The notes under the pieces: generated by a model
Databases searched by the model: none
What the model saw: the letters and a program-made list of their open reading frames with translations, nothing else
Told to the model about the DNA's origin: nothing
Source of the DNA: an uncultured Thermoplasmata archaeon
GTDB lineage: Archaea > Thermoplasmatota > Thermoplasmata > Halarchaeoplasmatales > Halarchaeoplasmataceae
Length of the DNA stretch: 64,000 nt
Assembly: GCA_964394465.1 (NCBI GenBank)
Contig: CAYMXS010000006.1
Location: 5,836-69,835 of the forward strand
Reading direction: 5' to 3'
In this document: positions 41,673 through 56,408 of the stretch, piece after piece
How the letters are laid out: the number at the start of each line of letters is the position of its first letter
Position numbering within the stretch: position 1 is the stretch's first letter
Position numbers and translations under genes: made by a program

Positions 41673-41751
41673 ATCTTTGCCAAGGACAAGAAAAGACTTT
41701 TATTCCAAAAATGCCTTTACAAAGCCAAATCAATAAGAGGATAGAGATAAG

Positions 41752-42567
41752 ATGATAGGAAGAGAGAACAAGAGAAAGGTCAACCTTTTAGGCGAAGCTG
41801 GTGTGGGCAAAACTTCTTTGATACTTCGTTTCGTTAAGAACGTCTTCGGAGAAGAATACCTGAAGACCATAGGAACAAATATCTACACGAAGAAGGTCCC
41901 TGTCACCGGCTCCGAGGTGAAGCTAGTTCTTCATGACATAATGGGGGATACGGATTTTGACACCGTGCGTGAGACCGCATTCCAAAAATCCACCGGTGCC
42001 ATAGCCGTGGCGGACTGCCTGAGAAAGGAGACATTGGATAGACTGGTTGAGGACTGGCTGCCCATGTATAAGGAGGCTTCTGTAGACAATGCCCCTGTCA
42101 TCCTTGCCGTAAATAAGGTGGATCTAGATGACCAGGAGATCACTGAAGAACTGGTAGCTAACGATTGGCAGGTCTATTTCGACAGCGTCTTCTACACCTC
42201 GGCCAAGACCGGCAAGAACGTGGAAGATATGTTCAACGAGCTGGGATTCAGAACCATATATAACAAGCCCTCCTTGGCCAGGAAGGGAGAGGATATGATA
42301 ACGATGGATAGAGTGATAGACGAACCAAGAGGATTGATGTCCGCCCTTCTTACTTACGCTTCCGTCAAGGGTGATATGCCCTATTCTACTAGAGAAGAGA
42401 TCTTCGAGAAGAGCGGGATCGACAAGTTTTCCCTAGACGAAGGTATATCGGAGAAAGAAGTATTGACTTTTGCCGATGGTCTTATAGAGTGGTATGAGGA
42501 GGACGGGGATCCAGATTCGGCTTCAGCCACTGAAAGCCTGGTCGAAAAATATGAAAAAGATTCTTAG
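41752..42567 (+). CDS. Ras-superfamily small GTPase with ~100-aa C-terminal extension (paralog 1)
   Basis: G1 GEAGVGKTS, switch-I Thr (KTIGT), G3 DIMGD (Asp where Gln is canonical), G4 NKVD, G5 TSAK. C-terminal extension shared with paralog 2. Confidence 0.8.
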   Translation: MIGRENKRKVNLLGEAGVGKTSLILRFVKNVFGEEYLKTIGTNIYTKKVPVTGSEVKLVLHDIMGDTDFDTVRETAFQKSTGAIAVADCLRKETLDRLVEDWLPMYKEASVDNAPVILAVNKVDLDDQEITEELVANDWQVYFDSVFYTSAKTGKNVEDMFNELGFRTIYNKPSLARKGEDMITMDRVIDEPRGLMSALLTYASVKGDMPYSTREEIFEKSGIDKFSLDEGISEKEVLTFADGLIEWYEEDGDPDSASATESLVEKYEKDS

Positions 42568-42588
42568 AGAACTCAGTGTCAAATCAAG

Positions 42589-43398
42589 ATGATAGGTAAC
42601 GAGAAGAGAAGAAAGGTGAACCTACTAGGTGAAACCAAAGTGGGCAAGACCGCCTTGGTACTCCGTTTCGTGGAAGACATATATGGAGAGGAATATCTGA
42701 AGACTATAGGCACGAACGTTTATACCAAGAAGGTCCCGGTCACGGGGTCGATGGTGAAGTTGGTCATACACGATATCATGGGTGATACCGACTTCGAGAC
42801 CGTTCGGGAGGTGGCCTTTCAGAAGTCCACTGGAGCCATTGCGGTAGTTGATCACAAGAGAGAAGAAACGTTGGACAGGCTGATCGAGGATTGGCTGCCC
42901 CTGTATAAAAAAGAAGCTGTGGACAACGCACCTATCATCTTGGCTATCAACAATCTAGAGGACGAGGATATAAGAGAAGAGGTAGTTAGTGACGAGGTGC
43001 TATTCTATTTCGATTCAGTATTCTATACATCTGCAAAAACGGGAAAAAACGTGCAGGATGTTTTCAGAGAACTCGGATTCAACTGCATCTATAACCAGCC
43101 CTCTATGATAAGGAAAGGGGAAGAATTCGTGGTCAAAGATAAAACACTAGAGACCCCAAAGAAGTTGTTATCCGCCCTCCTCACCTACGCCTCAGTCAAG
43201 GGGGACATGCCCTACTCGACCAGAGAAGAGATATTCGAAGAGAGCGGGATAGATAAATTCTCATTGGATGAAAAGATCTCGGAGGAGGAGGTTTTGTCAT
43301 TCGGTAATGGACTCATCCGATGGTATGAAAAAGATGGGGATGACGGATCCGCCTCCGCCACTAGTGATCTGATCGGAAAATATGAGAGAGAGTCCTAG
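42589..43398 (+). CDS. Ras-superfamily small GTPase paralog 2 with degenerate G4 motif
   Basis: G1 GETKVGKTA, G3 DIMGD, G5 TSAK, but G4 reads NNLE instead of NKxD. About 70% identical to paralog 1 including the C-terminal extension (LLTYASVKGDMPYSTREEIFE.SGIDKFSLDE). Confidence 0.75.
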   Translation: MIGNEKRRKVNLLGETKVGKTALVLRFVEDIYGEEYLKTIGTNVYTKKVPVTGSMVKLVIHDIMGDTDFETVREVAFQKSTGAIAVVDHKREETLDRLIEDWLPLYKKEAVDNAPIILAINNLEDEDIREEVVSDEVLFYFDSVFYTSAKTGKNVQDVFRELGFNCIYNQPSMIRKGEEFVVKDKTLETPKKLLSALLTYASVKGDMPYSTREEIFEESGIDKFSLDEKISEEEVLSFGNGLIRWYEKDGDDGSASATSDLIGKYERES

Positions 43399-43413
43399 AG
43401 GATTAGATACGAA

Positions 43414-46400
43414 CTAATCCTCTTCTTGGAATATCTGCTTCAGCTTCTCTCTTGCACCTCTGAGCTTCTCCATGTCTCCGTCCCAGTCCTCGAGTTCTTC
43501 TTCATACTCATCCTCAATATCCTCTATAGTTTCCTGTATGCTGCCGATCTCTTCGTCGGTCAGTTCTCCAGAGTATTTGACCGCTATGTACACGTACTCC
43601 CCTCTCTTGATCACTATCTTGTTGTCCTGGAACTCCAGTTTGTCTATGCTCCAGTCGTCTTCATCCTTGAATGAGTCCTTGATGAAGTTCTGTATGGCTG
43701 TCAGCATGCCCGCCATGACGTCCTCATCCATATCCGGCCTTAGCCTTCTCGTCTCATGGGCTATCAGCATGGCATCGTTCCCTATGAGGAATATCTCGTC
43801 GATGATGGCCTCTTCTTCCTCTTCACCGAGATATTGTGTATAGACGTAAGCGGCGGCTCCGGTTGACCCTATGATGATGAGGAATAAAAGCCAAAGGTAT
43901 CCATCTTGAGAGGATGAAGAAGCTGATCCTTTCGATTCGTCCACCCCAAAGGTCTGCTCTCCTGAACTGTTCCAGTTGTCAGATGAATCCTTTACGCAGA
44001 TGGTATAACTGTAGGTACCAGGATGGGAGTACGTCGAATTGTAGTACCATCTTTCTTCCGTCAACGATTTCATACTCTCATTGCGATGGGTTCCATCCGG
44101 ATAAATCAGATTGATCCAGACATCTTCTATCTCATGATTATCCCTGACCTCTGCCGTGATATTGACATGGTCTCCGGTTTCCTGTGGGTCGGGGGATACG
44201 AACATGTTCGATATGCCCGGTCTTATCGTATCTTCTATCCTGAAGTAGTGCCCACCGGAGGTGTTCCAGTTTGATGAAGCATCTCTCGCTAGGATCTCAT
44301 AACCATACATCCCGGTCTTGCTGTAAGTAGAATTGTAGTACCATAGTTCTCCCGGAGTAGAGTTCATACTGATATTTCGGCGGTCTCCTCCAGGTAGGTC
44401 TATGACCAGCCAGATCCCACTTATCTCTCCCTCATGAGTCACCTCGGCTGTAATATTCACATGTCCTCCGGTATCTTGAGGTTCTGGAAAAGCCACTACG
44501 CTCTGTATGTTCGGAGGCGTTTTTTCCTCAATCTCGAAGGAACGAGCGGTAGAACTGTTCCAGTTGTTCGACGGGTCTTTCGCTACGATCGTGAAACCAT
44601 GAATCCCAGAGGTGTTGTAAGTGGAGTTATAGTACCATATATCTCCTGACCCTGATTCCATACTCTTATTCTGGATATGTCCATCGGGACCGGTGATATT
44701 TACCAAGACATGGCTGACATGATCATCATCAGTTACAGCAGCGGTGATATTCACATGATCTCCTGGCTCTTGGGTTCCAGGCGTACTTACCACGTCTGAT
44801 ATCTCTGGAGCTTCGATATCTTCTATCTCAAAGGAATGGACGATAGTTGCATTCCAGTTATCCCCTGTATCTTTGGCGCAGATCGTATAATCATGTACAC
44901 CAAGCTCATCGTAGTGGGAGTTATAGTACCATCCATCATACGGTCCAGGTTCCATACTACTATTTTGTTCATCTCCTCCTGGAAAGACGATGTTTATCCA
45001 TACCGCTTCCAACTGATCGTTATCGGTTATATCGGCAGTTATATTGATGTGTCCTCCCTTCCCCTGCTTGTTTGGCAAGGCTGAAACGTTCGAGATCTCT
45101 GGTTCGATAGAGTCCTCGATCACGAAGGTATGGCCGCTTGAACTGTTCCAATTATTTACGGTATCGTCCGCCCAGATGGCATAACTGTACTCCCCCAGTT
45201 CGGTATAGGTGGAGTTATAGTACCATGAATTCTCCTGGGATGGGGCCATGGTTAGATTATAATGATCACCGTCGGGGTCGGTGATATTGATCCATACCTC
45301 GCCGACCCGATGGTTATCGGTCACGCTAGCGCTTATATTGACATATCCATTTAGCCCTTGAGTCTCAGGTGAGTTGACCACATCCGATATCACAGGGGCT
45401 TCGATATCCACTATGTCAAAAGACCGCACCTCAGTGGTGTTCACGTTACCAGATGTATCGTTCGCCCAGATGGTATATTCATAGGTCCCCGGTACGGTAT
45501 AAGTCGAATTATAGAACCACAGAGATACCATGTTTGATACCATACTCCTGTTCTGATGGGTACCGTCTGGCTTGGTTATGTTCACCCAGACCTCTCCGAC
45601 TTCATGATCGTCAGTTATGTTAGCGCTTATATTGACGTAACCTTCAGTTTCCTGAGGATCGGGCGAAACCATGACCTCATTTATCTCTGGAGCGGTACTA
45701 TCGACGACCAAAAAGTTATGACCACTCGAACTTGCTTGGTTACCCCAGGTATCGTTCGCCAGGACAGTAAAATCATATTTACCCAATTCGGAATAGGTAG
45801 AGTTGTAGTACCACATATTATATTGTGATTTTGTCATATTCTTTATGATATGTTCTCCGTCCGGATAGGTTATATTGACCCATACTTTTTTGAGCTCAGA
45901 AGTATCGGTGACCTTTGCAGTTATGTTTACGGTTCTTCCCACGTTCTGTTCCTGAGGTGTCACCTCTACATTGTTGATATCTGGCGGATCAGTTTCCATG
46001 ATGGTAAAATCATGGCCGCTGGAGGTGTTCCAGTTCTTAGAGGTATCATTCGCCCAGATGGTATAATCATAGGTCCCTAACTCGGTATAGGTCTCGTTAT
46101 AGTACCATCGATCACCGGGCCCCTTGTCCATACTCACGTTTTGATGATTACCGCCTGGGTAATAGATATCTACCTTTACTTTTTTGAGCTTATGGTTATC
46201 TGTTATATTGGCTGTGATATTGACATACTCCCCTATCACTTGTACATTCGGCACAGCCTTTACATCCGATATCTTGGGAGATATGGTATCATTTATCTCG
46301 AAGGTCTGACCTGTGGAGCGATTCCGGTTGTTAGATGTGTCATTCGCCCATATCCTATACTCATAACTCCCTGGCACATAGTAGGTAGAATTGTGATACC

Positions 46401-49400
46401 ATCCATCCTCCAACCCTGAGTTCATGCTCACATTTTGATAGGTCCCGTTAGGACCCGTTATATTGACCCAGACCTCGTCCAACTGATGGTTATCGGTTAT
46501 ATCAGCCGTTATATTGACATATCTCCCAGGTTCTTGAGGATCAGGTGAGGCACTGATGTTGTCTATCTCTGGTTCGAGGGTATCCTCTATCAAAAATGTC
46601 TCCTCCCGGGAGTGGTTCAGATTGCCAGCGGTGTCATTCGCGTAGATCACGTAGTGATAGGTACCTAAGACGGTATAATTGGATTCAAAATACCATTTAT
46701 CCCCTGTACCGGGATCCATACTCACATTTTGGTACATACTGTTCGGATGGGTGATGTTAAGCCAGACCTCGTCAACTTGAGCGTTATCGGTTATATCAGC
46801 CGTTATATTCACGGGCCCTCCGGTCTTCTGTTGATTAGGATCGGCTGAAACGTTCGATATCTTTGGGTCTATCGGGTCCACTATCTCGAAGGTATGGGCA
46901 CCTGTTGCGGTCGTATCCCAGTTATTAGATGTATCGTTCGCAGCGATGACGTAATAGTGGATGCCCACACTGTGATAGGTGGAGTTATAATACCATTGCC
47001 CACCCTGACCCTGGACCATACTATTATTTACATAACCACCACTAGGATAGGATATATTGACACAGACTTTCCCCAGGTTATAGTTATCTGATACATTTGC
47101 GGTGATATTCACATGTCCACCGGCCTGTATATAATCAGGAGAGGCCATAACATCCGATATCTGAGGCGGAGATAGATCCACTATCTCAAAATAGTGTACA
47201 TCTGAGATGTTCCAGTTGTTAGAATCGTCCTGAGCTAAAATCCTATAGGTGTAATTCCCCAAAAGAGTATAATTTGACTCGTGATACCATTCATCCCCTA
47301 TACCTGGGTCCATACTAACGTTCTCGAAAGTACTGTTCGGATAGGTGATGTTGACATAGACTTCATTCACATGAGCGTTATCAGTCACATTGGCTGTGAT
47401 ATTGACATATCTGTCCGTCTCCTGTGGGTCCGGCTTGGCATCCACATCTGTTATCTCAGGAGGTGCATCATCGTATATGGTGATGGTAACGTTCGCGGTA
47501 TCGGCCTTGCCGGCCCCGTCCTCTATCTTGTACGTGTAATTGTCCGTACATGAATAGTTAGTGTTAGGTTTATATTGTATCTCCCCTGTCGTATGATTGG
47601 TTGTGGCTATAGAACCATCAGATGGAGGGGTTATGATTGTTATAGACGTATAATTCAGATCGTCATTATCGTCAACATCGTTGATAGTAACATTCGTCCA
47701 CACATCGCCTCCCGCGGCACAGCTGTCCGAATCGTCTTTAGCCAAGGGCGCATCGTTTACTTCGTTAACGGTGATGTTTACCGTAGCTATATTAGATGTG
47801 ATGCCATCGGTGTCATCGACCGTATAATTGAAACTGTCCAAACCAGAATAGTTGGTGTCCGGCATATATCTTATCTCGCCAGTAGTACCATTTACCGATG
47901 TTGAGCCATGGGCTGGTCCGCTGGTTACCGTCACCGTGGAGGGATCAAGCGAGCCTTCCGAGGCAGTATCATTGGCAAGCACATCGCACAAAACTGCTGT
48001 ATCTTCGTCAGTTATATTTTGATCGTCATTGGCCGTCGGAGGGGCCTTTATGGTGAAATTTTTCTGGCTGGAACTGTTCCAGTTATCTGAGGTGTCATTC
48101 GCCCAGACAGTATAATTACAGGTGCCTAGGGAAGTGTATGTAGAATTGTAGTACCACAGATCATCTGTAGACCGGTTCATACTCACATTCTGATGACTGC
48201 TGTCAGGATAAGTGATGTTTACAGAGACTTTTTTTACTTCGTGAATGTCATTTACCTGTGCAGTTATATTCACCCATCCTCCAATCCCTTGGGGATCCGG
48301 TAAAGCTGATACGTTTGATACCTTCGGAGCGGTGGTATCTTCGATTTTAAAATTATGAATAGAAGTTTTCGCCCAGTTATCCGAGGTGTCGTTCGCCCAT
48401 ATAATATAATCATAAGTCCCCGTTGAAGTATAAGTTGAGTTGTAGTACCACAGACCACTCCCTCCCAGAGACATGCTTTCGTTTTGAGAAGTGCCATTTG
48501 GATGAGTGATATTGACCCATGCTTTGCCCACTTCATGATTATCTTCTACATCGGCACTGATATTGACATATCCTCCCGTTTCTTGAGTAGATGGACCCGT
48601 AACGTTATAGATGGTCGGTGCGATGGTGTCTTCTACATCATACCAATTACTGGAAGAACTATTCCAGTTGTTCGATGTATCGTTCGCCTCAATCGAATAG
48701 TATATACCCGTAGCGTTATTCCAGACAGAAATGTTTAGCCAGTAATTGGTTGAGGGCTTCATACTTTGGTTAAACCACTTGCCGTATCCGCCTGATGACT
48801 CCAATTTATATCTTAACCAGACCGTGTCAACTTCAGCATTATCCGTGACGTTAGCCGTGACGTTGAAAGATCCTCCGGTTGTTGGCGTTCTAGTGGTGGT
48901 ATCTTGAATCTCTGGCTTAGCTGTATCGTTCGTTTTAACGCTTATATCGTCAGCACGGAGAGAGCAATTTACCTGCTGAGAGCCTGAGGTGATGACGTCA
49001 ACATATAATTCCACGCTCACCTTATTGACTTTCCCCACTGGTGTATAATCCTTGTTCAGAGGGTGAAAATTATTCCAACCCGTGGACCCTTCTCCTAAAT
49101 CATCCCAGTAGGTAGATTTACTGTATATCTGCTTCCACCCAATAGTAGTATCGTTGACTGAGACTCTGGCAGTAGCTGTGATATTTTCTGCATCATACTC
49201 CGTAATATCATTTATTGTGCAATTGAAAGCTCCGTTCACGATGACTTCTTTTTTGATATCACCGATGCTTTGGGTCCAATTTCCCATTTGAGTGGCATCT
49301 GATTCTAAAGAAACCTCTACATATGTCTCGATACAGCCACTTCCATCACTGGTATTGGTGTGAGTGCTATCATAACGGTTACCATTTTCATCAGGTGATC

Positions 49401-49590
49401 CCTGACTATACTCTGATAAAGACCAGGATTCATATGAGCCATTGAATCCTCCATTCTCCACAAGCTCATACCTGACTGTATCCGCCTGTACCTCCTCTGT
49501 ACAGTTTATGCTAACGAGAGCGAAGAGTAACAGAACGGTCAATAGTATGGCTATCTTTCTTTTCATCGTCCTCAACAGTTTTATTTTCAC
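43414..49590 (-). CDS. giant (2058 aa) surface protein: signal peptide, N-terminal jelly-roll-like domain, ~15 tandem ~95-aa Ig-like repeats plus 2 cadherin-like modules, single TM, cytoplasmic Roadblock/LC7-like domain
   Basis: Repeat consensus P.I.NV...P..Q..GG.VNITA.VTDN..V..VWVNIT.P.G..QN.SM......WYYNSTY...GTY.Y.IWANDTS.NWN.S....F.I.D occurs 15 times. Cadherin-like segments carry NDAP. TM YLWLLFLIIIGSTGAAAYVYTQYL. The tail (IFLIGNDAMLIAHETR ... DVMAGMLTAIQNFIKDSF ... WSIDKLEFQDNKIVIKRGEYVYIAVKY) resembles MglB/Roadblock. Confidence 0.85.
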   Translation of the reverse strand: MKIKLLRTMKRKIAILLTVLLLFALVSINCTEEVQADTVRYELVENGGFNGSYESWSLSEYSQGSPDENGNRYDSTHTNTSDGSGCIETYVEVSLESDATQMGNWTQSIGDIKKEVIVNGAFNCTINDITEYDAENITATARVSVNDTTIGWKQIYSKSTYWDDLGEGSTGWNNFHPLNKDYTPVGKVNKVSVELYVDVITSGSQQVNCSLRADDISVKTNDTAKPEIQDTTTRTPTTGGSFNVTANVTDNAEVDTVWLRYKLESSGGYGKWFNQSMKPSTNYWLNISVWNNATGIYYSIEANDTSNNWNSSSSNWYDVEDTIAPTIYNVTGPSTQETGGYVNISADVEDNHEVGKAWVNITHPNGTSQNESMSLGGSGLWYYNSTYTSTGTYDYIIWANDTSDNWAKTSIHNFKIEDTTAPKVSNVSALPDPQGIGGWVNITAQVNDIHEVKKVSVNITYPDSSHQNVSMNRSTDDLWYYNSTYTSLGTCNYTVWANDTSDNWNSSSQKNFTIKAPPTANDDQNITDEDTAVLCDVLANDTASEGSLDPSTVTVTSGPAHGSTSVNGTTGEIRYMPDTNYSGLDSFNYTVDDTDGITSNIATVNITVNEVNDAPLAKDDSDSCAAGGDVWTNVTINDVDDNDDLNYTSITIITPPSDGSIATTNHTTGEIQYKPNTNYSCTDNYTYKIEDGAGKADTANVTITIYDDAPPEITDVDAKPDPQETDRYVNITANVTDNAHVNEVYVNITYPNSTFENVSMDPGIGDEWYHESNYTLLGNYTYRILAQDDSNNWNISDVHYFEIVDLSPPQISDVMASPDYIQAGGHVNITANVSDNYNLGKVCVNISYPSGGYVNNSMVQGQGGQWYYNSTYHSVGIHYYVIAANDTSNNWDTTATGAHTFEIVDPIDPKISNVSADPNQQKTGGPVNITADITDNAQVDEVWLNITHPNSMYQNVSMDPGTGDKWYFESNYTVLGTYHYVIYANDTAGNLNHSREETFLIEDTLEPEIDNISASPDPQEPGRYVNITADITDNHQLDEVWVNITGPNGTYQNVSMNSGLEDGWYHNSTYYVPGSYEYRIWANDTSNNRNRSTGQTFEINDTISPKISDVKAVPNVQVIGEYVNITANITDNHKLKKVKVDIYYPGGNHQNVSMDKGPGDRWYYNETYTELGTYDYTIWANDTSKNWNTSSGHDFTIMETDPPDINNVEVTPQEQNVGRTVNITAKVTDTSELKKVWVNITYPDGEHIIKNMTKSQYNMWYYNSTYSELGKYDFTVLANDTWGNQASSSGHNFLVVDSTAPEINEVMVSPDPQETEGYVNISANITDDHEVGEVWVNITKPDGTHQNRSMVSNMVSLWFYNSTYTVPGTYEYTIWANDTSGNVNTTEVRSFDIVDIEAPVISDVVNSPETQGLNGYVNISASVTDNHRVGEVWINITDPDGDHYNLTMAPSQENSWYYNSTYTELGEYSYAIWADDTVNNWNSSSGHTFVIEDSIEPEISNVSALPNKQGKGGHINITADITDNDQLEAVWINIVFPGGDEQNSSMEPGPYDGWYYNSHYDELGVHDYTICAKDTGDNWNATIVHSFEIEDIEAPEISDVVSTPGTQEPGDHVNITAAVTDDDHVSHVLVNITGPDGHIQNKSMESGSGDIWYYNSTYNTSGIHGFTIVAKDPSNNWNSSTARSFEIEEKTPPNIQSVVAFPEPQDTGGHVNITAEVTHEGEISGIWLVIDLPGGDRRNISMNSTPGELWYYNSTYSKTGMYGYEILARDASSNWNTSGGHYFRIEDTIRPGISNMFVSPDPQETGDHVNITAEVRDNHEIEDVWINLIYPDGTHRNESMKSLTEERWYYNSTYSHPGTYSYTICVKDSSDNWNSSGEQTFGVDESKGSASSSSQDGYLWLLFLIIIGSTGAAAYVYTQYLGEEEEEAIIDEIFLIGNDAMLIAHETRRLRPDMDEDVMAGMLTAIQNFIKDSFKDEDDWSIDKLEFQDNKIVIKRGEYVYIAVKYSGELTDEEIGSIQETIEDIEDEYEEELEDWDGDMEKLRGAREKLKQIFQEED

Positions 49591-49719: not shown

Positions 49720-52329
49720 ATGACCATACAATTCGTAGACGAAGAAGAAGCTATTGAAGACCTGCCAGAAGAGTACGAGCCCTACGTCAAGGAGTGGTTC
49801 CACGATACCTTCGAGGAGCTGACGCCTCCTCAAAGATACTCCTTCGAGCTGATACATGAAAATCGTAACTCACTCATCTCGTCTCCGACGGGTTCTGGTA
49901 AAACGATGTCCGCTTTCCTTTCCATACTGAACGAGCTGTTCCTCCTTGGAGATAAAGGTGAACTGGAGGATGAGATCTACGTGGTCTATGTCTCTCCTTT
50001 AAGAGCGTTGGGCAACGACATACAGAGGAACCTGAAGGAACCCCTGGAGGGCATAAAGGAGGAAGCCGAAGATATGGACGTCGAAGTACCCGAGGTGAGG
50101 AGCGCCGTCAGGACCGGAGATACTCCCTCGAACGAAAGGCAGAAGATGCTGGATGAGCCCCCTCACATCTTGGTTACCACACCGGAAACGCTTGGTATAA
50201 TACTGAACGCCCCCAAGTTCAAGGAGAAGCTCAGGAGTACGAAGTACGTCATAGTGGACGAGATACACTCCCTGTGTGACAGCAAGAGAGGGACTCACCT
50301 TTCACTGTCTTTAGAAAGGCTGCAGGACCTGTGCGATGAAGAGTTCACAAGGATCGGTCTTTCAGCCACTCAAGCCCCCATAGAGGACATAGCGGAGTTC
50401 CTGGTCGGGTATGAAGACGGAGAGACGAGAAGATGTAATATCGTGGACGTTTCGGGAGCCAAGGAGATGGACCTCTCGGTCATCACTCCAGTTGAGGACC
50501 TGATACACACCTCTGGCGGAGTTATAAACAAGAAGATGTACGACAAAATACACCAGATGGTGAAGGAACATGTAACGACCCTGATCTTCACGAACACGAG
50601 GTCCGCAACGGAAAGGGTGGTCAACAACCTGAAGGGGAAGGACCCCGAGCTTTACAGGAACAACATAGGGGCACATCATTCATCGATGAGCAGAAAGAAA
50701 AGGTTAGAGGTCGAAGAATCGCTCAAGAACGGGGAACTGAAGGTCGTCGTGACTTCTACCTCTCTGGAGCTGGGGATTGACATAGGTTACATCGATCTTG
50801 TACTTCAATTATCGTCTCCTAAGGGCGTTTCTAGAGCGATCCAGAGGATAGGCCGTTCCGGTCACAAGCTGCACGAGATGGCCAAGGGAAGAGTCCTGGT
50901 CATGGAGAGAGGCGACGCCTTGGAATGCACCGAGATGATGAGGTGCGCAAAGAACAACGAACTGGATAGGGTGCGCATACCTGAAAACTGCCTGGATGTC
51001 CTGGCGCAGCACATAGTCGGGATGGGATGCAGGAAGAGATGGAACGTTGAAAAGGCCTTTGAAACGATAAAAAGGAGCTACAATTTTAGAGAACTAGATA
51101 GGAAGGACTACGAGAAGACCTTGAAGTACGTGGCGGGGGACTACGCCTCTCTGGAGGATCAAAAAGTCTATGGGAAGATATGGATAGACGAGGACGAGAA
51201 CGGTGAGAGGGTCTTCGGTCAGAGGGGGAAGATGACCAGAGTGATATACATGACGAATATAGGTACCATACCGGACGAGAGCGCCTTCAGAGTCCATACA
51301 AGAGACGGCGCTTTCGTGGGCACTCTGGACGAGGAGTTCATGGACCGCCTTACAAAGGGAGATATATTCGTCCACGGCGGCGATACCTACGAGTTCAAGT
51401 ACGCCAAGGGGATGAAAGTATATGTTGATCCAAGGCCCAAAAGGTCGCCGACCGTACCTTCCTGGTACTCCGAGATGCTGCCGCTCTCATTCGACCTGGG
51501 CAGGAAGATAGGCAGGTTCAATTCTAAGGTTGTCAAAAAGATAAAGGAGGGTGAAGACCCGGAGGAGTGGATAGAAGAGAACTATTTCGTGGACGATAAC
51601 ACCGTATCCTCTATCATCTCGTATATAGACGAACAGCATAGGTTCGCGGGCGAGGTACCAACTGACTCGAAACTGCTGGTAGAGAAGAACTGGGAGGAGG
51701 ACAAACTGAACATCATATTCCATACCATCTACGGCAGGAGGGTCAACGACGCTCTGTGCAGGATACTGGCGCACACTTTATCCAAGATGATGGACGAGAA
51801 CGTCGGCATGGTGGTGGACGACCACGGGTTCGTTCTTGCGGCCCCTAAAAAAGACGTGGATATAGACAAACTGATGGAAAGGCTTTTGAAGTCAGACCTC
51901 AGAGACGTCCTGAAGAAAGCGGTGAGAAAGACCGAGTTGATGAAGAGAAGGTTCAGGCACGTGGCCTCTCGCGCTTTGATGATCCTCAGGAACTACAAGG
52001 GAAACAAGAAGAGCGTGGGGCGGCAGCAGATGAAATCTCATTTCCTTCTGTCAGCCTGTGAAAAGATAGACAAGGATTTTCCCATAGTGAAGGAGACGTA
52101 CCGTGAGATAATCGAAGATTATATGGACATAGAGCACGCTTCCGAGATAGTGAGAGGCTTGGAGAGGGGAGACATAAGTTATAAAGTGGTTGACACCGAG
52201 GTGCCTTCACCCTTCGCTCACAACCTGGTGATCCAGAGTCAGAGCGACGTGATGAAACTCGAGGATAAAAAGAAGAGGTTGAGAAAGCTCCACGACAAGG
52301 TCATGGAGAGCATCGACGAGGGAGACTGA
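49720..52329 (+). CDS. lhr: Lhr-core superfamily-2 DNA helicase
   Basis: Motif I SSPTGSGKT, motif II DEIH, motif VI QRIGRSGH. 869 aa with winged-helix and Lhr-core C-terminal domains. Confidence 0.85.
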   Translation: MTIQFVDEEEAIEDLPEEYEPYVKEWFHDTFEELTPPQRYSFELIHENRNSLISSPTGSGKTMSAFLSILNELFLLGDKGELEDEIYVVYVSPLRALGNDIQRNLKEPLEGIKEEAEDMDVEVPEVRSAVRTGDTPSNERQKMLDEPPHILVTTPETLGIILNAPKFKEKLRSTKYVIVDEIHSLCDSKRGTHLSLSLERLQDLCDEEFTRIGLSATQAPIEDIAEFLVGYEDGETRRCNIVDVSGAKEMDLSVITPVEDLIHTSGGVINKKMYDKIHQMVKEHVTTLIFTNTRSATERVVNNLKGKDPELYRNNIGAHHSSMSRKKRLEVEESLKNGELKVVVTSTSLELGIDIGYIDLVLQLSSPKGVSRAIQRIGRSGHKLHEMAKGRVLVMERGDALECTEMMRCAKNNELDRVRIPENCLDVLAQHIVGMGCRKRWNVEKAFETIKRSYNFRELDRKDYEKTLKYVAGDYASLEDQKVYGKIWIDEDENGERVFGQRGKMTRVIYMTNIGTIPDESAFRVHTRDGAFVGTLDEEFMDRLTKGDIFVHGGDTYEFKYAKGMKVYVDPRPKRSPTVPSWYSEMLPLSFDLGRKIGRFNSKVVKKIKEGEDPEEWIEENYFVDDNTVSSIISYIDEQHRFAGEVPTDSKLLVEKNWEEDKLNIIFHTIYGRRVNDALCRILAHTLSKMMDENVGMVVDDHGFVLAAPKKDVDIDKLMERLLKSDLRDVLKKAVRKTELMKRRFRHVASRALMILRNYKGNKKSVGRQQMKSHFLLSACEKIDKDFPIVKETYREIIEDYMDIEHASEIVRGLERGDISYKVVDTEVPSPFAHNLVIQSQSDVMKLEDKKKRLRKLHDKVMESIDEGD

Positions 52330-53081
52330 TGAAGTTATACGATAGGTTCGAGATCATAGAGAACTATCCCGCCCTTTACATGAAAGAGAAAAACATGCTG
52401 GTCATAGCCGATCTTCACCTGGGTCTGGAATCCCTGATGGCGGACTCCGGCATGCTCATGCCCAAGGTCCAGCTCTCTCAGCTTAAAGAGGATCTGAATT
52501 CTATAGCCGGAGAAAGAGATATAGAGAAGCTGGTGGTCTGCGGAGATATAAAGCACGAGTTTTCCGAAGCGTCGTACGGGGAAAAGAAGGAAGTCAGAGA
52601 ACTGATCCGCTTTCTGGAGGAGTTCGTTAGAGAAATATACCTGGTCAAGGGCAACCATGACAATTTTCTCATCTACGCGGTGGAGGAGTACGAACACGTC
52701 CAGTTAAAAGACTGCTTCGTCTTCGACGATGTATGCTTTGCACACGGCCACGAGATACTGGACAGGATGAACGGCCTGGACATAGAATACCTGGTGATCG
52801 GTCATGAACATCCTGCCTTGACTCTGAGGGACGATGTGGGAGTTAGGGAGAAACTGCAGTGTTTCCTGTACGGCGAGATGAAGAACGACGCCAAGCTGGT
52901 GGTCTTACCGGCATTTTCCGAACTGGCGGAGGGTTCACAGGTGAACCAGATAGAAGAAGAGGACCTGCTCTCCCCTGTACTCAAAGAGATGATAGATATA
53001 GAAGAGATGAAAGCCGTGGGTATAGACAGGGAAGCCGGCCTGTTCGAATTTCCAAGGCTTGAAGAGATCAAGCACGTTTGA
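52329..53081 (+). CDS. calcineurin-like metallophosphoesterase (MPE), partner of Lhr
   Basis: Motifs ADLHLG, GDIKH, GNHDN, GHEH. 1-nt overlap with the lhr stop (ctgATGaag). Confidence 0.8.
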   Translation: MKLYDRFEIIENYPALYMKEKNMLVIADLHLGLESLMADSGMLMPKVQLSQLKEDLNSIAGERDIEKLVVCGDIKHEFSEASYGEKKEVRELIRFLEEFVREIYLVKGNHDNFLIYAVEEYEHVQLKDCFVFDDVCFAHGHEILDRMNGLDIEYLVIGHEHPALTLRDDVGVREKLQCFLYGEMKNDAKLVVLPAFSELAEGSQVNQIEEEDLLSPVLKEMIDIEEMKAVGIDREAGLFEFPRLEEIKHV

Positions 53082-53153: not shown

Positions 53154-56100
53154 ATGACGGTGAGTCAAAAAGTGATGGCTATCGGACTAGCGGCTGTTTT
53201 CCTTATCGGTTCACTGTCAGGAGCAGGTAAGTATCTTAGAACGCAAGAAGCAGAATGTGTGGATAAGGTCGATATAGATGTCACAACCAGCAGAGATACA
53301 GCCATCCAGAAAGTAGCGGATGGGGAGAAGGATATACTCCTCCAGAGTTTAGGGATGAAAAATTATGCTGATGTATCCGACGATCTCAAAGACAAATTGG
53401 GGTTATGGACTGGTAGTGGAGAATATTATAACTTGCTACTCAACCCAGCGCACGAACCAGATGCATCTACGCCGGACGGTGAAAGCTGGAAATACGTCTG
53501 TCAGGACGATGAAGACGGCAATAAAATGTTCAATCCCTTCGCAGTTAAAAAATTCCGTTACGCCATGAACTTTCTGGTAAACAGGAAGAAAATAGGTAGT
53601 GATATTTTTGAAGGCTATGCGGAACCACGTTATTTTCCTGTAAAAACCGGAACTGGACCTTATGAAGACTATTTCGAAGCGATAAAAGAGGAACACGGGA
53701 TAACCAGCACGGGTAACCTCCAAAAAGCGAAAGAAATGATCTATAACGTCTTGGAAAAAGCGAATGATGACATGGTTGAAGGAGATATAAGGTCTCCAAA
53801 AGACCATCACGGGGACTACTGGCAGTACAAGCCTCCGGGGAAGGCATGGAAAAATATGACAGTTCAAGGAGTCTTTGGGAATGATTTCACAGAAAAAAAG
53901 ATGGAACAATACGTTGAAAATCTGTTAGAAGATGAAATAGGAATAAAGGTGATACCCAATCCGTTTGACACAACGATGGGACCTCCTAATGTATACTCCG
54001 GAGAATATGACGATCCCCTTGATGATTATGGGTGGAGCTATTATATAGAGGGATGGCATCCCTATGGAAATACCTACTATCCAGGTGGTAGGGCTGTCGA
54101 GAGATACTGCCCTTCTCCATCCTATGGAGCCATGCCTAATCTTGTAGAAGGAGAAACACATTACCAATATGAGAACGAAACGTTGGTCAGGCTGGGAAAG
54201 TCCCTCTATAACGGCAAGATAAACACAGTCGACGAGTACTGGAACAAGCTAACCAGACTCGTGGAAGCTGGGTTGGACGAGTCGATCAGAGTCTTCCTTA
54301 GTACTGAGAAGGAATATTATGTGTACAACGATGACAAAGTAATGGGTGCGGCAACGGACGTAGTTACTGGCTGGTCTGACGTGTTCGGGCCGAGAACGAT
54401 CCGGACAAACGATGGAAACCTATCGGCAACGGTCTTTGATATCGATCTTTCCGAGTACCGTTGGAACTATATTGGTGGTTCTGAAGAGGGATTCAGTGAC
54501 CGTATCCGAAAGATGGTTCGTGGAGTCGCTGGAGCTACTCATCCTCAAACAGGAAAACCAATGGGAGTACGAGAAAGTTGGACCGTAACAAAGGATTACA
54601 CATGGGAAGAGGACGGAAATCTGACAAAGAAAATAGAGGTCCCATCTAGCGCCGTGGTCTATAAAGCGAACCAAACTGATAAACGATGGGAGCAAGTCGG
54701 CACAGGTAAGAAATCCGCGGTGAAAGTCACTTATGACGTGGATCTGGGCAGATGGCACGACGGCCATGAGATGACCGTTCGGGATATCATGGCTTATTAC
54801 GCTTTCAGTAAGGACATGTGCTACGACCTCGGCGAAGAAGGGGATTATTATAACCAGCTATATGCTTGGCAACGAAAGGCATTCTACGATGATATCGTCG
54901 CTACCAGATGGAACCAGGAAGAAAATACATTTACGATCTGGGGAGACTATACCTTCCCGGCAAAAAGTAAGATAGGTGAGTATTTCACCGTATGGCCCAT
55001 CCAACCGTATCAAATATACGAGGCGACAGAGCAGCTGGTCATAGAGAGCGACCTTGTACCCGAGGGAAGCGAGCCCTATGCTTGGGATAATTATGGCGAA
55101 GGTAACTTGGTCCACTACCTGAGCGAGTCGCAGGGGTCGGACATAAAAACCGTCCTCCAGAACATGAAATCGGCGGATTGGATGCCTCCGTACTTGAAAA
55201 AGGAGAACAATGCACCGATCAATATCTCCCAGGCAGAATTCGAGAGTCAAATAGACGATATAATCGGGTTCTATGATGAATACCACCATCTCTACGATTC
55301 GAACGGTCCATTCAAGATCACCGATTACAACTCGACTACGCACGAGATGAGCATGAAAAGAGCCAGTGGATATCCATATCCTATGGATCACTGGGAGGAG
55401 AAGTTGTCCATAGAGAAGTTCACTTTCTCTACAGATATACAGACATCCGATGAGATAGTAAGAGGAGATGATCTAACAGTCGAGGTCGGGGCTTTGATAG
55501 ATGCCGACTATCCAATAGACGAGGATAGAGACTTGCCCCCGGGTACTGAAGCAAACATCACCCTGAGCAACATGGTGACGAGTGAGAAGGCGAAAAGAGT
55601 GACCGAGCCAACGATAGGAAACCGGTCTATCTCTACAGTGATCGAGACGGAAGACATGGTCCCGGGAACGTATCGATTGACTATAGAGGCAAAGACACCT
55701 GGCGGTTGGACCCGAAGTATCGAGAAAACTGTAAAGCTCTTAGAACCAGATAAATTTCTGGTTAAAAGTCTCACCGTCGATGGAGATAATGAACAGACAC
55801 AGGTAAACCAATTCGTCAATACTACGATCAAAACTAGAGTGCTAAATACATATAAGAGTGATCAAACAGCGAAGTTGGAAGTCGACGGTTCTACGATAAA
55901 AGAAAAGACAGTGAAAGCCGGAGAGACCGAGAACTTTTCTGCTACATATCGTTTCACCACCACGGGCGAGCATACCGTAAAGGTAGGTAACAGGTCCGTT
56001 GTCGTATCAGTGGTCAAAGGAGGTCTCGATATCACCGGTCTCCACCTTGAAAACGAGAAGATAGAGAAAGGTAGATCGGTATCCATCTCGGCGAACATCG

Positions 56101-56408
56101 AAAACGGTCGGTCTTCGCCAGTGAAAGTGAAGGTGCTGATAAAGGATGAGACCGGAGAAGTCGTAGACAGCAAGCTCTTTACGGTCGATGCGGGAGATAC
56201 TACCAGTATATCCTGGAGCAGAACTTTCAAAGAGGAAGGCGAATACACGGTCGAGCTAGGTGATCAATCACAGAGTCTAGAAGTCAAAGAGGATATTGAT
56301 AGGGAAGAAGAGCCGGACGAAGATTGGATGCTGATGCTCGGCTTGACCGCGGTGATGGGTGTTATCATCGCCATCGTGTTTTCGTGGGTATATAGAGAAG
56401 AAAGATAG
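53154..56408 (+). CDS. membrane-anchored family-5 solute-binding-protein-like domain fused to CARDB/Ig-like domains
   Basis: N-terminal TM/signal. FRYAMNFLVNRKKIGSDIFEGYAEP matches the Opp/Dpp-type SBP signature region. C-terminal CARDB-like repeats (ITGLHLENEKIEKGRSVSISANIENGRSSPVKVKV). TM plus REER tail. Confidence 0.6.
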   Translation: MTVSQKVMAIGLAAVFLIGSLSGAGKYLRTQEAECVDKVDIDVTTSRDTAIQKVADGEKDILLQSLGMKNYADVSDDLKDKLGLWTGSGEYYNLLLNPAHEPDASTPDGESWKYVCQDDEDGNKMFNPFAVKKFRYAMNFLVNRKKIGSDIFEGYAEPRYFPVKTGTGPYEDYFEAIKEEHGITSTGNLQKAKEMIYNVLEKANDDMVEGDIRSPKDHHGDYWQYKPPGKAWKNMTVQGVFGNDFTEKKMEQYVENLLEDEIGIKVIPNPFDTTMGPPNVYSGEYDDPLDDYGWSYYIEGWHPYGNTYYPGGRAVERYCPSPSYGAMPNLVEGETHYQYENETLVRLGKSLYNGKINTVDEYWNKLTRLVEAGLDESIRVFLSTEKEYYVYNDDKVMGAATDVVTGWSDVFGPRTIRTNDGNLSATVFDIDLSEYRWNYIGGSEEGFSDRIRKMVRGVAGATHPQTGKPMGVRESWTVTKDYTWEEDGNLTKKIEVPSSAVVYKANQTDKRWEQVGTGKKSAVKVTYDVDLGRWHDGHEMTVRDIMAYYAFSKDMCYDLGEEGDYYNQLYAWQRKAFYDDIVATRWNQEENTFTIWGDYTFPAKSKIGEYFTVWPIQPYQIYEATEQLVIESDLVPEGSEPYAWDNYGEGNLVHYLSESQGSDIKTVLQNMKSADWMPPYLKKENNAPINISQAEFESQIDDIIGFYDEYHHLYDSNGPFKITDYNSTTHEMSMKRASGYPYPMDHWEEKLSIEKFTFSTDIQTSDEIVRGDDLTVEVGALIDADYPIDEDRDLPPGTEANITLSNMVTSEKAKRVTEPTIGNRSISTVIETEDMVPGTYRLTIEAKTPGGWTRSIEKTVKLLEPDKFLVKSLTVDGDNEQTQVNQFVNTTIKTRVLNTYKSDQTAKLEVDGSTIKEKTVKAGETENFSATYRFTTTGEHTVKVGNRSVVVSVVKGGLDITGLHLENEKIEKGRSVSISANIENGRSSPVKVKVLIKDETGEVVDSKLFTVDAGDTTSISWSRTFKEEGEYTVELGDQSQSLEVKEDIDREEEPDEDWMLMLGLTAVMGVIIAIVFSWVYREER

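Follow-up and report, generated by a model that had tools for sequence, protein, structure and literature searches.

Tandem Rab-like GTPases with a G3 carboxylate beside a giant surface protein with a predicted longin tail in a halophilic Thermoplasmatota archaeon

Eukaryotic membrane traffic rests on longin and roadblock platforms that are paired with Rab, Arf or Rag GTPases. The prokaryotic roots of this pairing have mostly been discussed for Asgard archaea. A 64-kb stretch of DNA from a Thermoplasmata archaeon (hereafter, the window) raises two questions about such a pairing: (i) what do two adjacent small GTPase genes with unusual nucleotide-binding motifs encode; and (ii) does the giant surface protein encoded next to them have a part in their function? 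No tRNA genes were found within the window. The features of the GTPase pair are as follows.

41698..41704, + strand: TTTTATT, a TATA-box-like element about 50 nt 5' of the paralog 1 start codon (sequence reading only)
41752..42567, + strand: paralog 1, Rab-like small GTPase, 271 aa (ORF; Pfam Ras E 1.6e-29)
41791-41814, + strand: paralog 1 G1, GEAGVGKT
41857-41880, + strand: paralog 1 switch I, YLKTIGTN
41935-41949, + strand: paralog 1 G3, DIMGD, with Asp66 at the Gln position (Rab21/Rab35 alignment)
42112-42123, + strand: paralog 1 G4, NKVD
42196-42207, + strand: paralog 1 G5, TSAK
42247..42564, + strand: paralog 1 C-terminal extension, residues 166-271 (linker and helical bundle)
42589..43398, + strand: paralog 2, Rab-like GTPase, 269 aa (ORF; Pfam Ras E 1.4e-23)
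42628-42651, + strand: paralog 2 G1, GETKVGKT
42694-42717, + strand: paralog 2 switch I
42772-42786, + strand: paralog 2 G3, DIMGD
42949-42960, + strand: paralog 2 degenerate G4, NNLE, with a 2-aa deletion (motif coordinates and paralog alignment)
43027-43038, + strand: paralog 2 G5, TSAK
43078-43395, + strand: paralog 2 C-terminal extension

A Rab-like GTPase family without the G3 glutamine

We found both ORFs as the original prediction had described them, as tandem paralogous small GTPases; they are 71% identical (193/271 residues, E 1e-148). The gap between them is only 21 nt, which makes their co-transcription likely as the sequence reads. Pfam Ras matched residues 9-164 with 103 and 83.7 bits for paralogs 1 and 2, respectively (cut-off 21.6), and TIGR00231 scored 74 and 56.7 bits (cut-off 42.5). 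By these curated profile cut-offs, both paralogs are Ras superfamily small GTPases. G1 (GxxxxGK[ST]), the switch-I Thr (T39), the DxxG of G3 and the SAK of G5 are intact in both, including the G1 and TSAK motifs that had been expected to be retained, and the corresponding columns are invariant across the family.

The assignment of the G3 motif depends on its register. A phmmer alignment of paralog 1 with Rab21 and Rab35 is gap-free from G1 through G3, which rules out a shifted register. HDIMGDTDF lies over WDTAGQERF in this alignment, and Asp66 therefore occupies the position of the catalytic Gln; further along, NKVD lies over NKID and TSAK over TSAK. The predicted change of the catalytic Gln to Asp in both paralogs is upheld by this register, and the predicted difference in G4, NKVD in paralog 1 versus NNLE in paralog 2, was borne out by alignment as well.

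The missing Gln is a consensus trait of the whole GTPase family and not peculiar to the window pair. Both paralogs lack a Gln after DxxG, the family consensus at this position is Glu or Asp, and about 110 protein clusters, almost exclusively from hypersaline or soda-lake Thermoplasmatota, have DIMG[E/D] as their G3. This tally was taken from a regex motif table in which G3 is mis-registered in three sequences (P0060, P0086 and P0105). In the open-access papers and preprints searched, we found no description of the family, its C-terminal domain or its TM-longin partners, and these DIMG[E/D] Rab-like GTPases of halophilic Thermoplasmatota are an uncharacterised family.

The textbook GTPase without a G3 Gln is Rap, which has Thr61 instead and relies on the Asn thumb that RapGAP provides. 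The original prediction had argued along these lines that loss of the Gln makes hydrolysis depend on a residue supplied by a GAP. This does not follow for the window family, in which the replacement is a carboxylate, whereas in Rap it is a Thr. Because Asp and Glu are carboxylates and Ras Q61E was reported to have raised intrinsic GTPase activity (PMC2987813), GAP dependence is, by analogy, not implied.

Beyond the G domain, both paralogs carry an extension of ~105 aa that is conserved family-wide. The structural model places a low-confidence linker of ~25 residues before a small helical bundle of ~80 residues, and identity between the paralogs is 70-80% in this C-terminal domain. Nothing in Pfam matched past residue ~165 of the paralogs, with no match for the extension at E<=1, and neither a match among PDB sequences nor a consistent fold match was obtained. 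An exhaustive hmmsearch of 1.84 billion representatives recovered the extension in the window GTPase family alone; the other matches were fragments and three tandem-repeat artefacts (P0181, P0187 and P0188), and we rejected its occurrence in other architectures on these grounds. Homology to the C-terminal regions (~110 aa) of other long Thermoplasmatota GTPases (L068, L008, L054 and others) was likewise rejected at the sensitivity of hhalign, which returned a probability of 0.3%. Although a Roc profile matched the G domain (E 1.5e-19), a match to any COR family was absent and the extension is only ~105 aa long, unlike a ROCO protein. The claim of a conserved extension of ~100 aa with no known relative has thus held up: it is present in both paralogs and throughout the family, and these searches found no relative outside it.

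The degenerate G4 motif of paralog 2

In a column-based count, the Lys and Asp of G4 are 100% conserved in about 110 full-length family members, with paralog 2 as the sole exception. Its residues 121-124 read NNLE, and the loop is also 2 residues shorter. We asked what kind of gene carries this change. Between the paralogs, synonymous sites are saturated (pS 0.81) and pN is 0.17. We found an identical paralog 2 protein encoded by 7 contigs of several assemblies, and paralog 2 is therefore no assembly error. Synonymous saturation, the low pN and an ORF that is intact across several assemblies led us to reject a recent duplicate, a gene-conversion product and a decaying pseudogene; by these sequence measures, paralog 2 is an old duplicate under purifying selection. 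A strong rate acceleration was rejected too, as Tajima tests were significant with only 3/8 outgroups, and such acceleration as there is appears modest and outgroup-dependent.

The original prediction had offered two roles for paralog 2, a pseudo-GTPase or a GTPase of altered nucleotide specificity. A true pseudo-GTPase would be free of nucleotide and serve as a scaffold, dimerising with paralog 1 by way of the C-terminal domain that the two share, and the lost guanine-specificity motif, the shortened G4 loop and the close similarity of the two C-terminal domains all fit such a role. However, proteins that have lost nucleotide binding have usually lost GxxxxGKT, the switch-I Thr, DxxG and SAK too. 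Paralog 2 keeps all of these, including the P-loop Lys and Ser/Thr and the G3 Asp whose loss defines a pseudo-GTPase; only G4 is degenerate, and the protein deviates at only six columns that are >=85% conserved. We therefore consider a pseudo-GTPase very unlikely. With only G4 broken and purifying selection in force, altered or weakened base recognition is the likelier of the two predicted roles and the part of the prediction that we favour.

A plainer explanation is that paralog 2 is a tolerated, partly redundant duplicate, fast-exchanging and mostly GTP-loaded, with no special pairing and no new base specificity. Substitutions of K117 and D119 in Ras mainly raise nucleotide off-rates, which is what this explanation would call for, and all other motifs of paralog 2 are intact. 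It also accords with the occurrence of tandem duplicates in three lineages, the other two of which keep NKxD in both copies. Against it stand the identity of paralog 2 in several assemblies and the invariance of the G4 Lys and Asp in the about 110 other members while purifying selection continues. Loss of these otherwise invariant residues under purifying selection suggests that the function of paralog 2 has changed rather than become neutral, and we regard a merely redundant duplicate as rather doubtful.

Altered base recognition has a possible parallel in the ATP-preferring YchF/Ola1 proteins, in which NxxE replaces NKxD (PMC8779481), a pattern that the NNLE of paralog 2 matches. The likeness is one of motif pattern only, as the YchF family belongs to another GTPase branch (Obg-related, TRAFAC), whereas paralog 2 is Rab-like and has no TGS domain. 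The family thus holds natural variants of both the catalytic Gln (Glu or Asp) and NKxD (NNLE) for studies of GTPase mechanism.

A predicted longin tail and its linkage to the GTPases

The gene downstream of the pair lies on the opposite strand, and its product combines arrayed Ig-like/cadherin-like repeats with a single TM helix and a tail in the cytoplasm. Its features are as follows.

43397..43423, no strand assigned: perfect 10-nt inverted repeat AGAGGATTAG / CTAATCCTCT with a 7-nt loop, across the gap between the convergent stop codons
43414..49590, - strand: giant type-I surface protein, 2058 aa (ORF; Pfam DUF4625, Big_9, Cadherin_4/5, Big_7)
43420..43809, - strand: cytoplasmic domain of predicted longin fold, residues ~1928-2057 (AF2 model)
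43474-43488, - strand: W-x-G-D motif of the tail
43732-43752, - strand: conserved TRRLRPD loop of the tail
43828..43899, - strand: single TM helix YLWLLFLIIIGSTGAAAYVYTQYL, residues 1898-1921 (sequence reading)
49483-49590, - strand: N-terminal hydrophobic signal-like segment

The inverted repeat could be a bidirectional terminator hairpin. The AF2 model of the tail has a pLDDT of 83 (E2-10, E15-20, H29-46, E57-60, E63-69, E73-80, H85-107, H113-128). Its topology is that of a longin domain (b1-b2-a1-b3-b4-b5-a2-a3), lacking a helix at the N-terminus and having an additional one at the C-terminus, and the model is closer to solved longin domains than to other folds. Searches of Pfam and NCBIfam with the tail gave no match and hence no sequence-profile link to curated longin families, a profile search of PDB sequences gave chance helical matches only, and the PADLOC anti-phage defence models matched neither the tail nor either paralog. 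From the model, we predict that the tail is a longin domain. A word-based homologue search with the tail alone found 1 match, and it took a five-sequence alignment to reach 60. A hydrophobic segment always precedes the homologous tail domains.

We took a census of 49 distinct loci with a GTPase bearing the C-terminal extension of the window family. A longin-domain protein lies <=150 bp away at 13/49 loci and <=5 kb away at 18/49, and no such protein was encoded in the 266 kb of flanking sequence that lay beyond 5 kb. The loci in the clade of the window (L011-L017 and L020; 63-68% identity) share one arrangement: the gene for a large protein converges on the GTPase gene, and 10-24 bp lie between the latter and the end of the C-terminal longin domain. 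We tested the radical-SAM, RNase-J-like, MATE and Lhr genes for conserved synteny and found none; no other window neighbour is syntenic. Distant Ras-like GTPases also adjoin proteins with tail-type domains in Thermoplasmata, in Methanomassiliicoccales-related MAGs and in one Helarchaeota MAG. At one locus (L068), six tandem GTPases follow a 2292-aa FG-GAP/Ig/TM/longin protein. When metagenomic loci with the tail domain were taken as the starting point, a Ras-like GTPase was found <=300 bp away at 9/79. Tandem GTPase pairs stand beside a longin gene in three lineages, and in each the two copies are each other's closest relatives. This recurrence is indirect support for the possible regulatory pair of paralogs 1 and 2 that the original prediction had suggested.

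The linkage is not universal, and the adjacency might have no functional meaning, with the GTPases acting elsewhere, for example in the cytoskeleton, at the ribosome or in cell division. A longin neighbour is missing at about 60% of family loci, although short contigs are frequent and there are several paralogs per genome. Among these are the locus of the closest relative of paralog 1 (L001, 80% identity), with no longin within 10 kb, and the second GTPase pair of the same genome as the window (L007), around which 8 kb are likewise free of longin domains. Most tail-domain proteins have no adjacent GTPase either, and the domain may therefore have other partners. However, a chance neighbourhood is hard to reconcile with the contrast between the 13 close pairs and the empty background, with a layout that is unchanged across 57-68% identity, with recurrence of the linkage in distant GTPase families and other phyla, or with the lack of any other conserved neighbour. 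We consider a meaningless adjacency most improbable. The idea that the tail of the giant protein is relevant to the GTPases, raised in the original prediction, is strongly supported by its predicted fold and by this recurring pairing.

A functional pairing could instead serve biogenesis: the longin tail would resemble SRX, the SR-beta-binding domain of SR-alpha, and the GTPase would direct how the giant protein is targeted, secreted, placed or turned over. Two classes of partner argue against this. In one, a tail-type domain is embedded in a cytoplasmic STAND AAA_16-TPR ATPase, which needs no membrane targeting; the other comprises small 2TM-plus-longin proteins, which have almost no ectodomain and are also common. 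We regard a role in biogenesis as unlikely.

On balance, we lean towards a reading in which Rab-like GTPases with a G3 carboxylate and a private helical domain work with the longin-tailed giant protein next door, paralog 1 as a guanine switch and paralog 2 as a changed partner. In the physical interaction that we infer, the longin tail, anchored in the membrane and probably dimeric, would recruit one or both soluble GTPases to the membrane and control their nucleotide state. Events at the extracellular repeats would thereby be coupled to the cytoplasmic switch, or signalling might run in the reverse direction. The C-terminal helical domain may be an output or oligomerisation module. Paralog 1 would act as a normal guanine-nucleotide switch. 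Paralog 2 is predicted to have kept phosphate and Mg binding and to bind guanine weakly or accept another base, and on the same longin platform it could be a partner that differs in its kinetics or is loaded constitutively. A more far-reaching version, which we hold only tentatively, is a receptor-coupled small-GTPase module in non-Asgard archaea. Adhesin- or integrin-like giants (Ig, cadherin-like, FG-GAP) would use a cytoplasmic longin domain as exchange factor, GAP or docking site, and the GTPase pair would have diversified into a guanine switch and an NxxE-type partner on a dimeric longin.

Comparison with known systems

A study of 2016 noted divergent single Rab-like genes in Thermoplasmatales and Aciduliprofundum and reported that archaeal Rab-like proteins have neither a C-terminal extension nor a membrane-association signal (Surkont & Pereira-Leal, PMC4915359). 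The best PDB sequence matches are Rab21, Rab35 and Rab1 (E ~1e-20), and a Thorarchaeota Rab (7ezb) is also listed. The window family has in common with Rabs and archaeal Rab-like proteins G1, a TIG-type switch I, DxxG, NKxD and SAK. In contrast to Rabs, which have the catalytic Gln, full RabF motifs and prenylation, it has Asp or Glu, partial RabF motifs and no prenylation motif: switch I reads TIGTN, not IGVDF, and switch II reads DIMGD, not DTAGQE. The C-termini of the pair (...EKYEKDS and ...GKYERES) have no Cys, as in other archaeal Rab-like proteins, and a folded helical domain of ~80 aa takes the place of the Rab hypervariable tail. The family is thus not Rab proper, and the NCBI label 'Rab family GTPase' on its relatives reflects similarity only.

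Group 1 Rup GTPases (Wuichet & Sogaard-Andersen 2014) likewise have no G3 Gln; a membrane-associated protein is encoded with them, and they were proposed to act in transmembrane signalling. They are bacterial, however, and their neighbours are a coiled-coil protein, an OmpA-domain protein and GGDEF/EAL or histidine-kinase outputs, with no longin reported. MglA/MglB and the actinobacterial conservon (CvnA-D) resemble the window locus in that a prokaryotic small GTPase gene lies beside a regulator of the roadblock/longin superfamily, and a membrane sensor is a further component of the conservon (PMC4316618). The pair does not belong with MglA/MglB: its best matches are Rabs, its partner is a longin-like domain on a TM protein, and no separate roadblock gene was recognised beside it.

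Eukaryotic Rab, Arf, Rag and SR-beta GTPases have GEF, GAP and receptor platforms that are built from the longin fold. The tail model has the same predicted fold and topology as these platforms (Mon1-Ccz1, the TRAPP core, DENN, FLCN-FNIP, NPRL2/3, SRX of SR-alpha) and the Asgard longins (8yqg), and like them it is paired, here genetically, with a Ras-superfamily GTPase. Unlike them, it is attached, behind a TM helix, to a giant extracellular protein, or else lies inside a STAND ATPase. Longin/roadblock dimers are established GTPase platforms, but in the Asgard archaeon MK-D1 the GTPase genes generally lie outside operons with longin or roadblock genes, and gene order does not reveal which Asgard GTPases and longins are cognate (PMC10933270). 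In the Thermoplasmatota loci studied here, a Rab-like GTPase gene lies directly beside the gene for a predicted longin domain tethered by a TM helix, which gives predicted one-to-one GTPase-longin pairs that are directly expressible. It also gives a concrete hypothesis of how prenylation-free archaeal GTPases reach membranes; if true, the TM-anchored longin would tie to the membrane those archaeal Rab-like proteins that otherwise seem to have no means of attachment. On this evidence, the coupling of longin domains to GTPases may have an earlier origin or a wider spread among archaea than an Asgard-centred view implies.

Tandem GTPase genes with altered G3 and G4 motifs

The original prediction described tandem small GTPases with non-canonical motifs, and this pair is real and more than a chance arrangement. 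The two open reading frames lie 21 nt apart on the same strand:

41752-42567, + strand: paralog 1, 271 aa
42589-43398, + strand: paralog 2, 269 aa

Full-length identity between the two proteins is 71% (193/271, E 1e-148). Residues ~9-164 of both match the Pfam Ras profile (E 1.6e-29 for paralog 1 and 1.4e-23 for paralog 2) as well as Roc and Arf, and both proteins match the TIGR00231 small-GTP domain; beyond residue ~165, none of the Pfam or NCBIfam profiles matches. The best matches among PDB sequences (phmmer) were Rab21, Rab35, Rab1, Sec4 and a Thorarchaeota Rab, with E ~1e-20 to 1e-18. Alignment to Rab21 and Rab35 has zero gaps from G1 through G3 and pairs WDTAGQERF with HDIMGDTDF, which places Asp66 at the position of the catalytic Gln, the substitution proposed for both paralogs; further on, NKVD pairs with NKID and TSAK with TSAK. 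A shifted motif register, with the canonical Gln elsewhere, is ruled out by this gap-free alignment. The predicted difference in G4 was likewise confirmed: paralog 1 has NKVD, whereas paralog 2 has NNLE in a loop shortened by a two-residue deletion. G1 and G5 (TSAK) are intact in both proteins, as had been claimed, with paralog 2 retaining the P-loop, switch-I Thr, DxxG and SAK.

A homologue search returned 191 proteins, ~115 of which represent full-length clusters of 255-300 aa. Nearly all homologues with a named source belong to MAGs of 'Candidatus Thermoplasmatota', Thermoplasmata, Natronoplasma or Saliniplasma. In the species-representative genomes scanned there were several paralogs per genome, and full-length members were confined to hypersaline/soda-lake MAGs (Great Salt Lake and soda-lake sediment bins, and the genera Natronoplasma, Halarchaeoplasma, Haladaptatiplasma and Saliniplasma), apart from an Aenigmatarchaeota bin and a single bin with a bacterial label. 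G1 GxxxVGKT, switch I YLKTIGTN and G5 TSAK are family-wide. Because G3 is DIMGE or DIMGD throughout, and just two of the listed sequences have Gln, lack of the Gln is a trait of the whole family and not peculiar to this pair. Among more distant Thermoplasmatota GTPases, G3 reads DIMGE in some and DI[LM]GQ in others, which we take to mean that the carboxylate probably arose inside a group with Gln at this position.

Outside paralog 2, a column count of ~110 full-length members shows 100% conservation of the Lys and Asp of G4. Paralog 2 deviates at six columns that are at least 85% conserved (K7R, S22A, F32Y, T90K, G4 Lys and G4 Asp). An assembly error is ruled out, as the exact paralog 2 protein occurs on seven contigs, drawn from several assemblies and from one sequencing run, with identical neighbours. 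In a neighbour-joining tree, paralog 1 and its 80%-identical relatives form a clade, and paralog 2, on a somewhat longer branch, is the sister lineage of that clade. Tajima relative-rate tests gave an excess of unique changes in paralog 2 (e.g. 35 vs 12), significant with 3/8 outgroups only. Between the paralogs, pS is 0.81 (saturated) and pN 0.17, which marks the duplication as old and shows purifying selection on both copies. Two other tandem pairs, at loci L017 (78% identity) and L020 (81%), keep NKxD in both copies, and each pair clusters with itself, indicating either independent duplications or concerted evolution.

Further arrangements of GTPase genes were observed at the compared loci:

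L007, 7079-8849 (GCA_905333475.1, the window's genome): second tandem pair of family GTPases, 272 and 282 aa
L008, 8842-9675, - strand; L043, 1397-2239, - strand; L044; L046; L038: DIMGE member paired with a Gln-type GTPase
L002, 3270-7408; L003; L004, 1-5766: conserved operon of a deeper branch

The L007 pair adjoins an HSP20/DnaK/DnaJ/GrpE cluster. DIMGE members repeatedly stand tail-to-tail, their stop codons overlapping, with a different GTPase of ~280 aa; this partner retains the catalytic Gln (DLIGQQG) and ends in a C-terminal region of its own. The operon comprises, in order, a DnaA-like ATPase-DUF835 fusion, a GTPase, a protein of ~150 aa ending in a zinc ribbon (CxxC...CxxC) and another GTPase; L004 has a third GTPase, and at L009 a DUF835 lies 2 kb from the GTPase.

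A family-specific C-terminal extension

Both paralogs were said to share a conserved C-terminal extension of unknown fold, and this description holds. In the AF2 model of the ~105-aa region (32-sequence alignment, mean pLDDT 77), a disordered linker leads into five to six helices. We found no Pfam family, no meaningful match among PDB sequences and no Foldseek match of the model in the PDB (best E 1.7), and comparing profiles revealed no match to the C-terminal regions that other long archaeal GTPases carry. When 1.84 billion representatives were searched exhaustively with the extension profile, the 12 proteins recovered were all members of this GTPase family, its fragments or tandem-repeat artefacts. 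With no common known domain or outside relative recovered by these remote-homology searches, the extension is, as modelled, a narrowly spread helical domain specific to this GTPase family, and it may act as an output or oligomerisation module. One database protein, P0181 (844 aa), consists of 14 near-identical 59-aa tandem repeats and reached E 7e-27 against the extension profile through summed partial matches; it is likely an assembly or repeat artefact, able to mislead profile searches.

Linkage to a predicted longin domain

The most informative feature adjoins the GTPase pair, just outside it. The neighbouring features are:

43397-43423: inverted repeat, perfect 10 nt with a 7-nt loop, between and overlapping the convergent stops of paralog 2 and the giant gene
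43414-49590, - strand: giant protein, 2058 aa, convergent with paralog 2
49720-53081, divergent from the giant gene: Lhr-type large helicase and metallophosphoesterase
53154-56408: second large probable surface protein, 1084 aa

The N-terminus of the giant protein is hydrophobic; Ig-like and cadherin-like repeats (DUF4625, Big_9, Cadherin_4/5) come next, and a single TM helix leads to a cytoplasmic tail of ~135 aa that matches nothing in Pfam or NCBIfam. An AF2 model of the tail, from an alignment of the window tail with homologues from a profile search, has the topology b-b-a-b-b-b-a-a (pLDDT 83), on which we predict that it is a longin domain anchored at the cytoplasmic face of the membrane. 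Every homologous domain is either preceded by one or two hydrophobic segments or embedded in an AAA_16 ATPase; a TRRLRPD loop is conserved in the tail and missing from the ATPase-embedded variants. The inverted repeat could be a shared terminator hairpin.

The helicase carries DEAD, Helicase_C, WH_Lhr and DEAD_assoc domains, and its stop is overlapped by the start of the calcineurin-like metallophosphoesterase. The 1084-aa protein combines an SBP_bac_5 solute-binding domain with CARDB/Ig-like domains at its C-terminus, and the tail-domain HMM detected no longin-like tail in it.

We scanned six-frame ORFs of all fetched loci with HMMs for the GTPase, extension and tail domain. A tail-domain protein lies within 150 bp of the GTPase at 13/49 distinct family loci and within 5 kb at 18/49; the 266 kb of flanking sequence beyond 5 kb contains none. 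The window's clade (L011-L017, L020) shares one geometry, a convergent large longin-ended protein 10-24 bp after the GTPase, and no other synteny was found around the window GTPases. Two kinds of partner occur in deeper branches. One is a co-directional giant protein (L005, L028, L037, L041); the other, a second and cytoplasmic partner class, is a STAND-type AAA_16-TPR ATPase in which the domain is inserted after Walker A. No longin-domain neighbour was found within 10 kb at L001, the locus of the closest relative of paralog 1, or within 8 kb at L007.

L022, 4061-7330, - strand; L023, 10780-13920 and 13944-16091, + strand; L002, 3-2411, - strand: STAND-type AAA_16 ATPases with a longin-like domain
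L068, 3-12848 (CP070751.1, Thermoplasmata archaeon bin33 chromosome): GTPase array

These ATPases have long TPR arrays and directly adjoin family GTPases. Distant short Ras-like GTPases also adjoin tail-domain proteins in other Thermoplasmata, Methanomassiliicoccales-related and 'Methanobacteriota' MAGs, two bacterial bins and one Helarchaeota MAG. At L068, a 2292-aa FG-GAP/Ig/TM protein with a C-terminal longin-like domain precedes six tandem ~285-300-aa Ras-like GTPases, whose G3 alternates between DI[LQ]GLR and DILGQ and whose ~110-aa C-terminal region is different. In the reverse direction, a GTPase lies within 300 bp at 9 of the 79 metagenomic loci with the tail domain, so the domain family is wider than its GTPase linkage. 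Its commonest metagenomic form (P0121-P0173) is an unannotated protein of ~195 aa, widespread in soil/sediment Thermoplasmata, in which two TM helices at the N-terminus precede the longin-like domain.

Proposed mechanism and comparison with known systems

Longin and roadblock dimers are small-GTPase-binding platforms with GEF or GAP action (PMC10933270). We propose that the longin tail would tether and regulate one or both GTPases at the membrane and couple a cytoplasmic switch to the extracellular repeats, with the conserved TRRLRPD loop as a candidate nucleotide contact. The original interpretation of the pair is right in part. It held that loss of the Gln makes hydrolysis GAP-dependent; this need not follow, since the G3 Asp/Glu may itself serve as an intrinsic catalytic or Mg-binding carboxylate, and intrinsic GTPase activity is raised in Ras Q61E (PMC2987813). 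In YchF/Ola1, NxxE replaces NKxD and is thought to explain a preference for ATP (PMC8779481). Base recognition by paralog 2 may be weakened or changed, and paralog 2 may act alongside paralog 1.

Our search of open-access papers and preprints found no earlier description of this GTPase family or longin module. Single divergent Rab-like genes were noted earlier in Thermoplasmatales and Aciduliprofundum, and the absence of a C-terminal extension or membrane-association signal from archaeal Rab-like proteins was stressed (PMC4915359). In one Asgard archaeon, longin and roadblock genes generally do not share operons with GTPase genes (PMC10933270). Both paralogs are Ras-superfamily members most like Rabs, but they lack the prenylation Cys and catalytic Gln of Rabs and have incomplete RabF motifs. 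The GTPase-longin system resembles MglA/MglB, the conservon, Asgard GTPase-longin fusions and group 1 Rup systems, which are also Gln-less with a membrane partner. Unlike in all four, the longin domain here is fused to a receptor-like TM protein and the GTPase has a private C-terminal domain. We rate the system as a variant of a known theme, a small GTPase with a longin/roadblock regulator.
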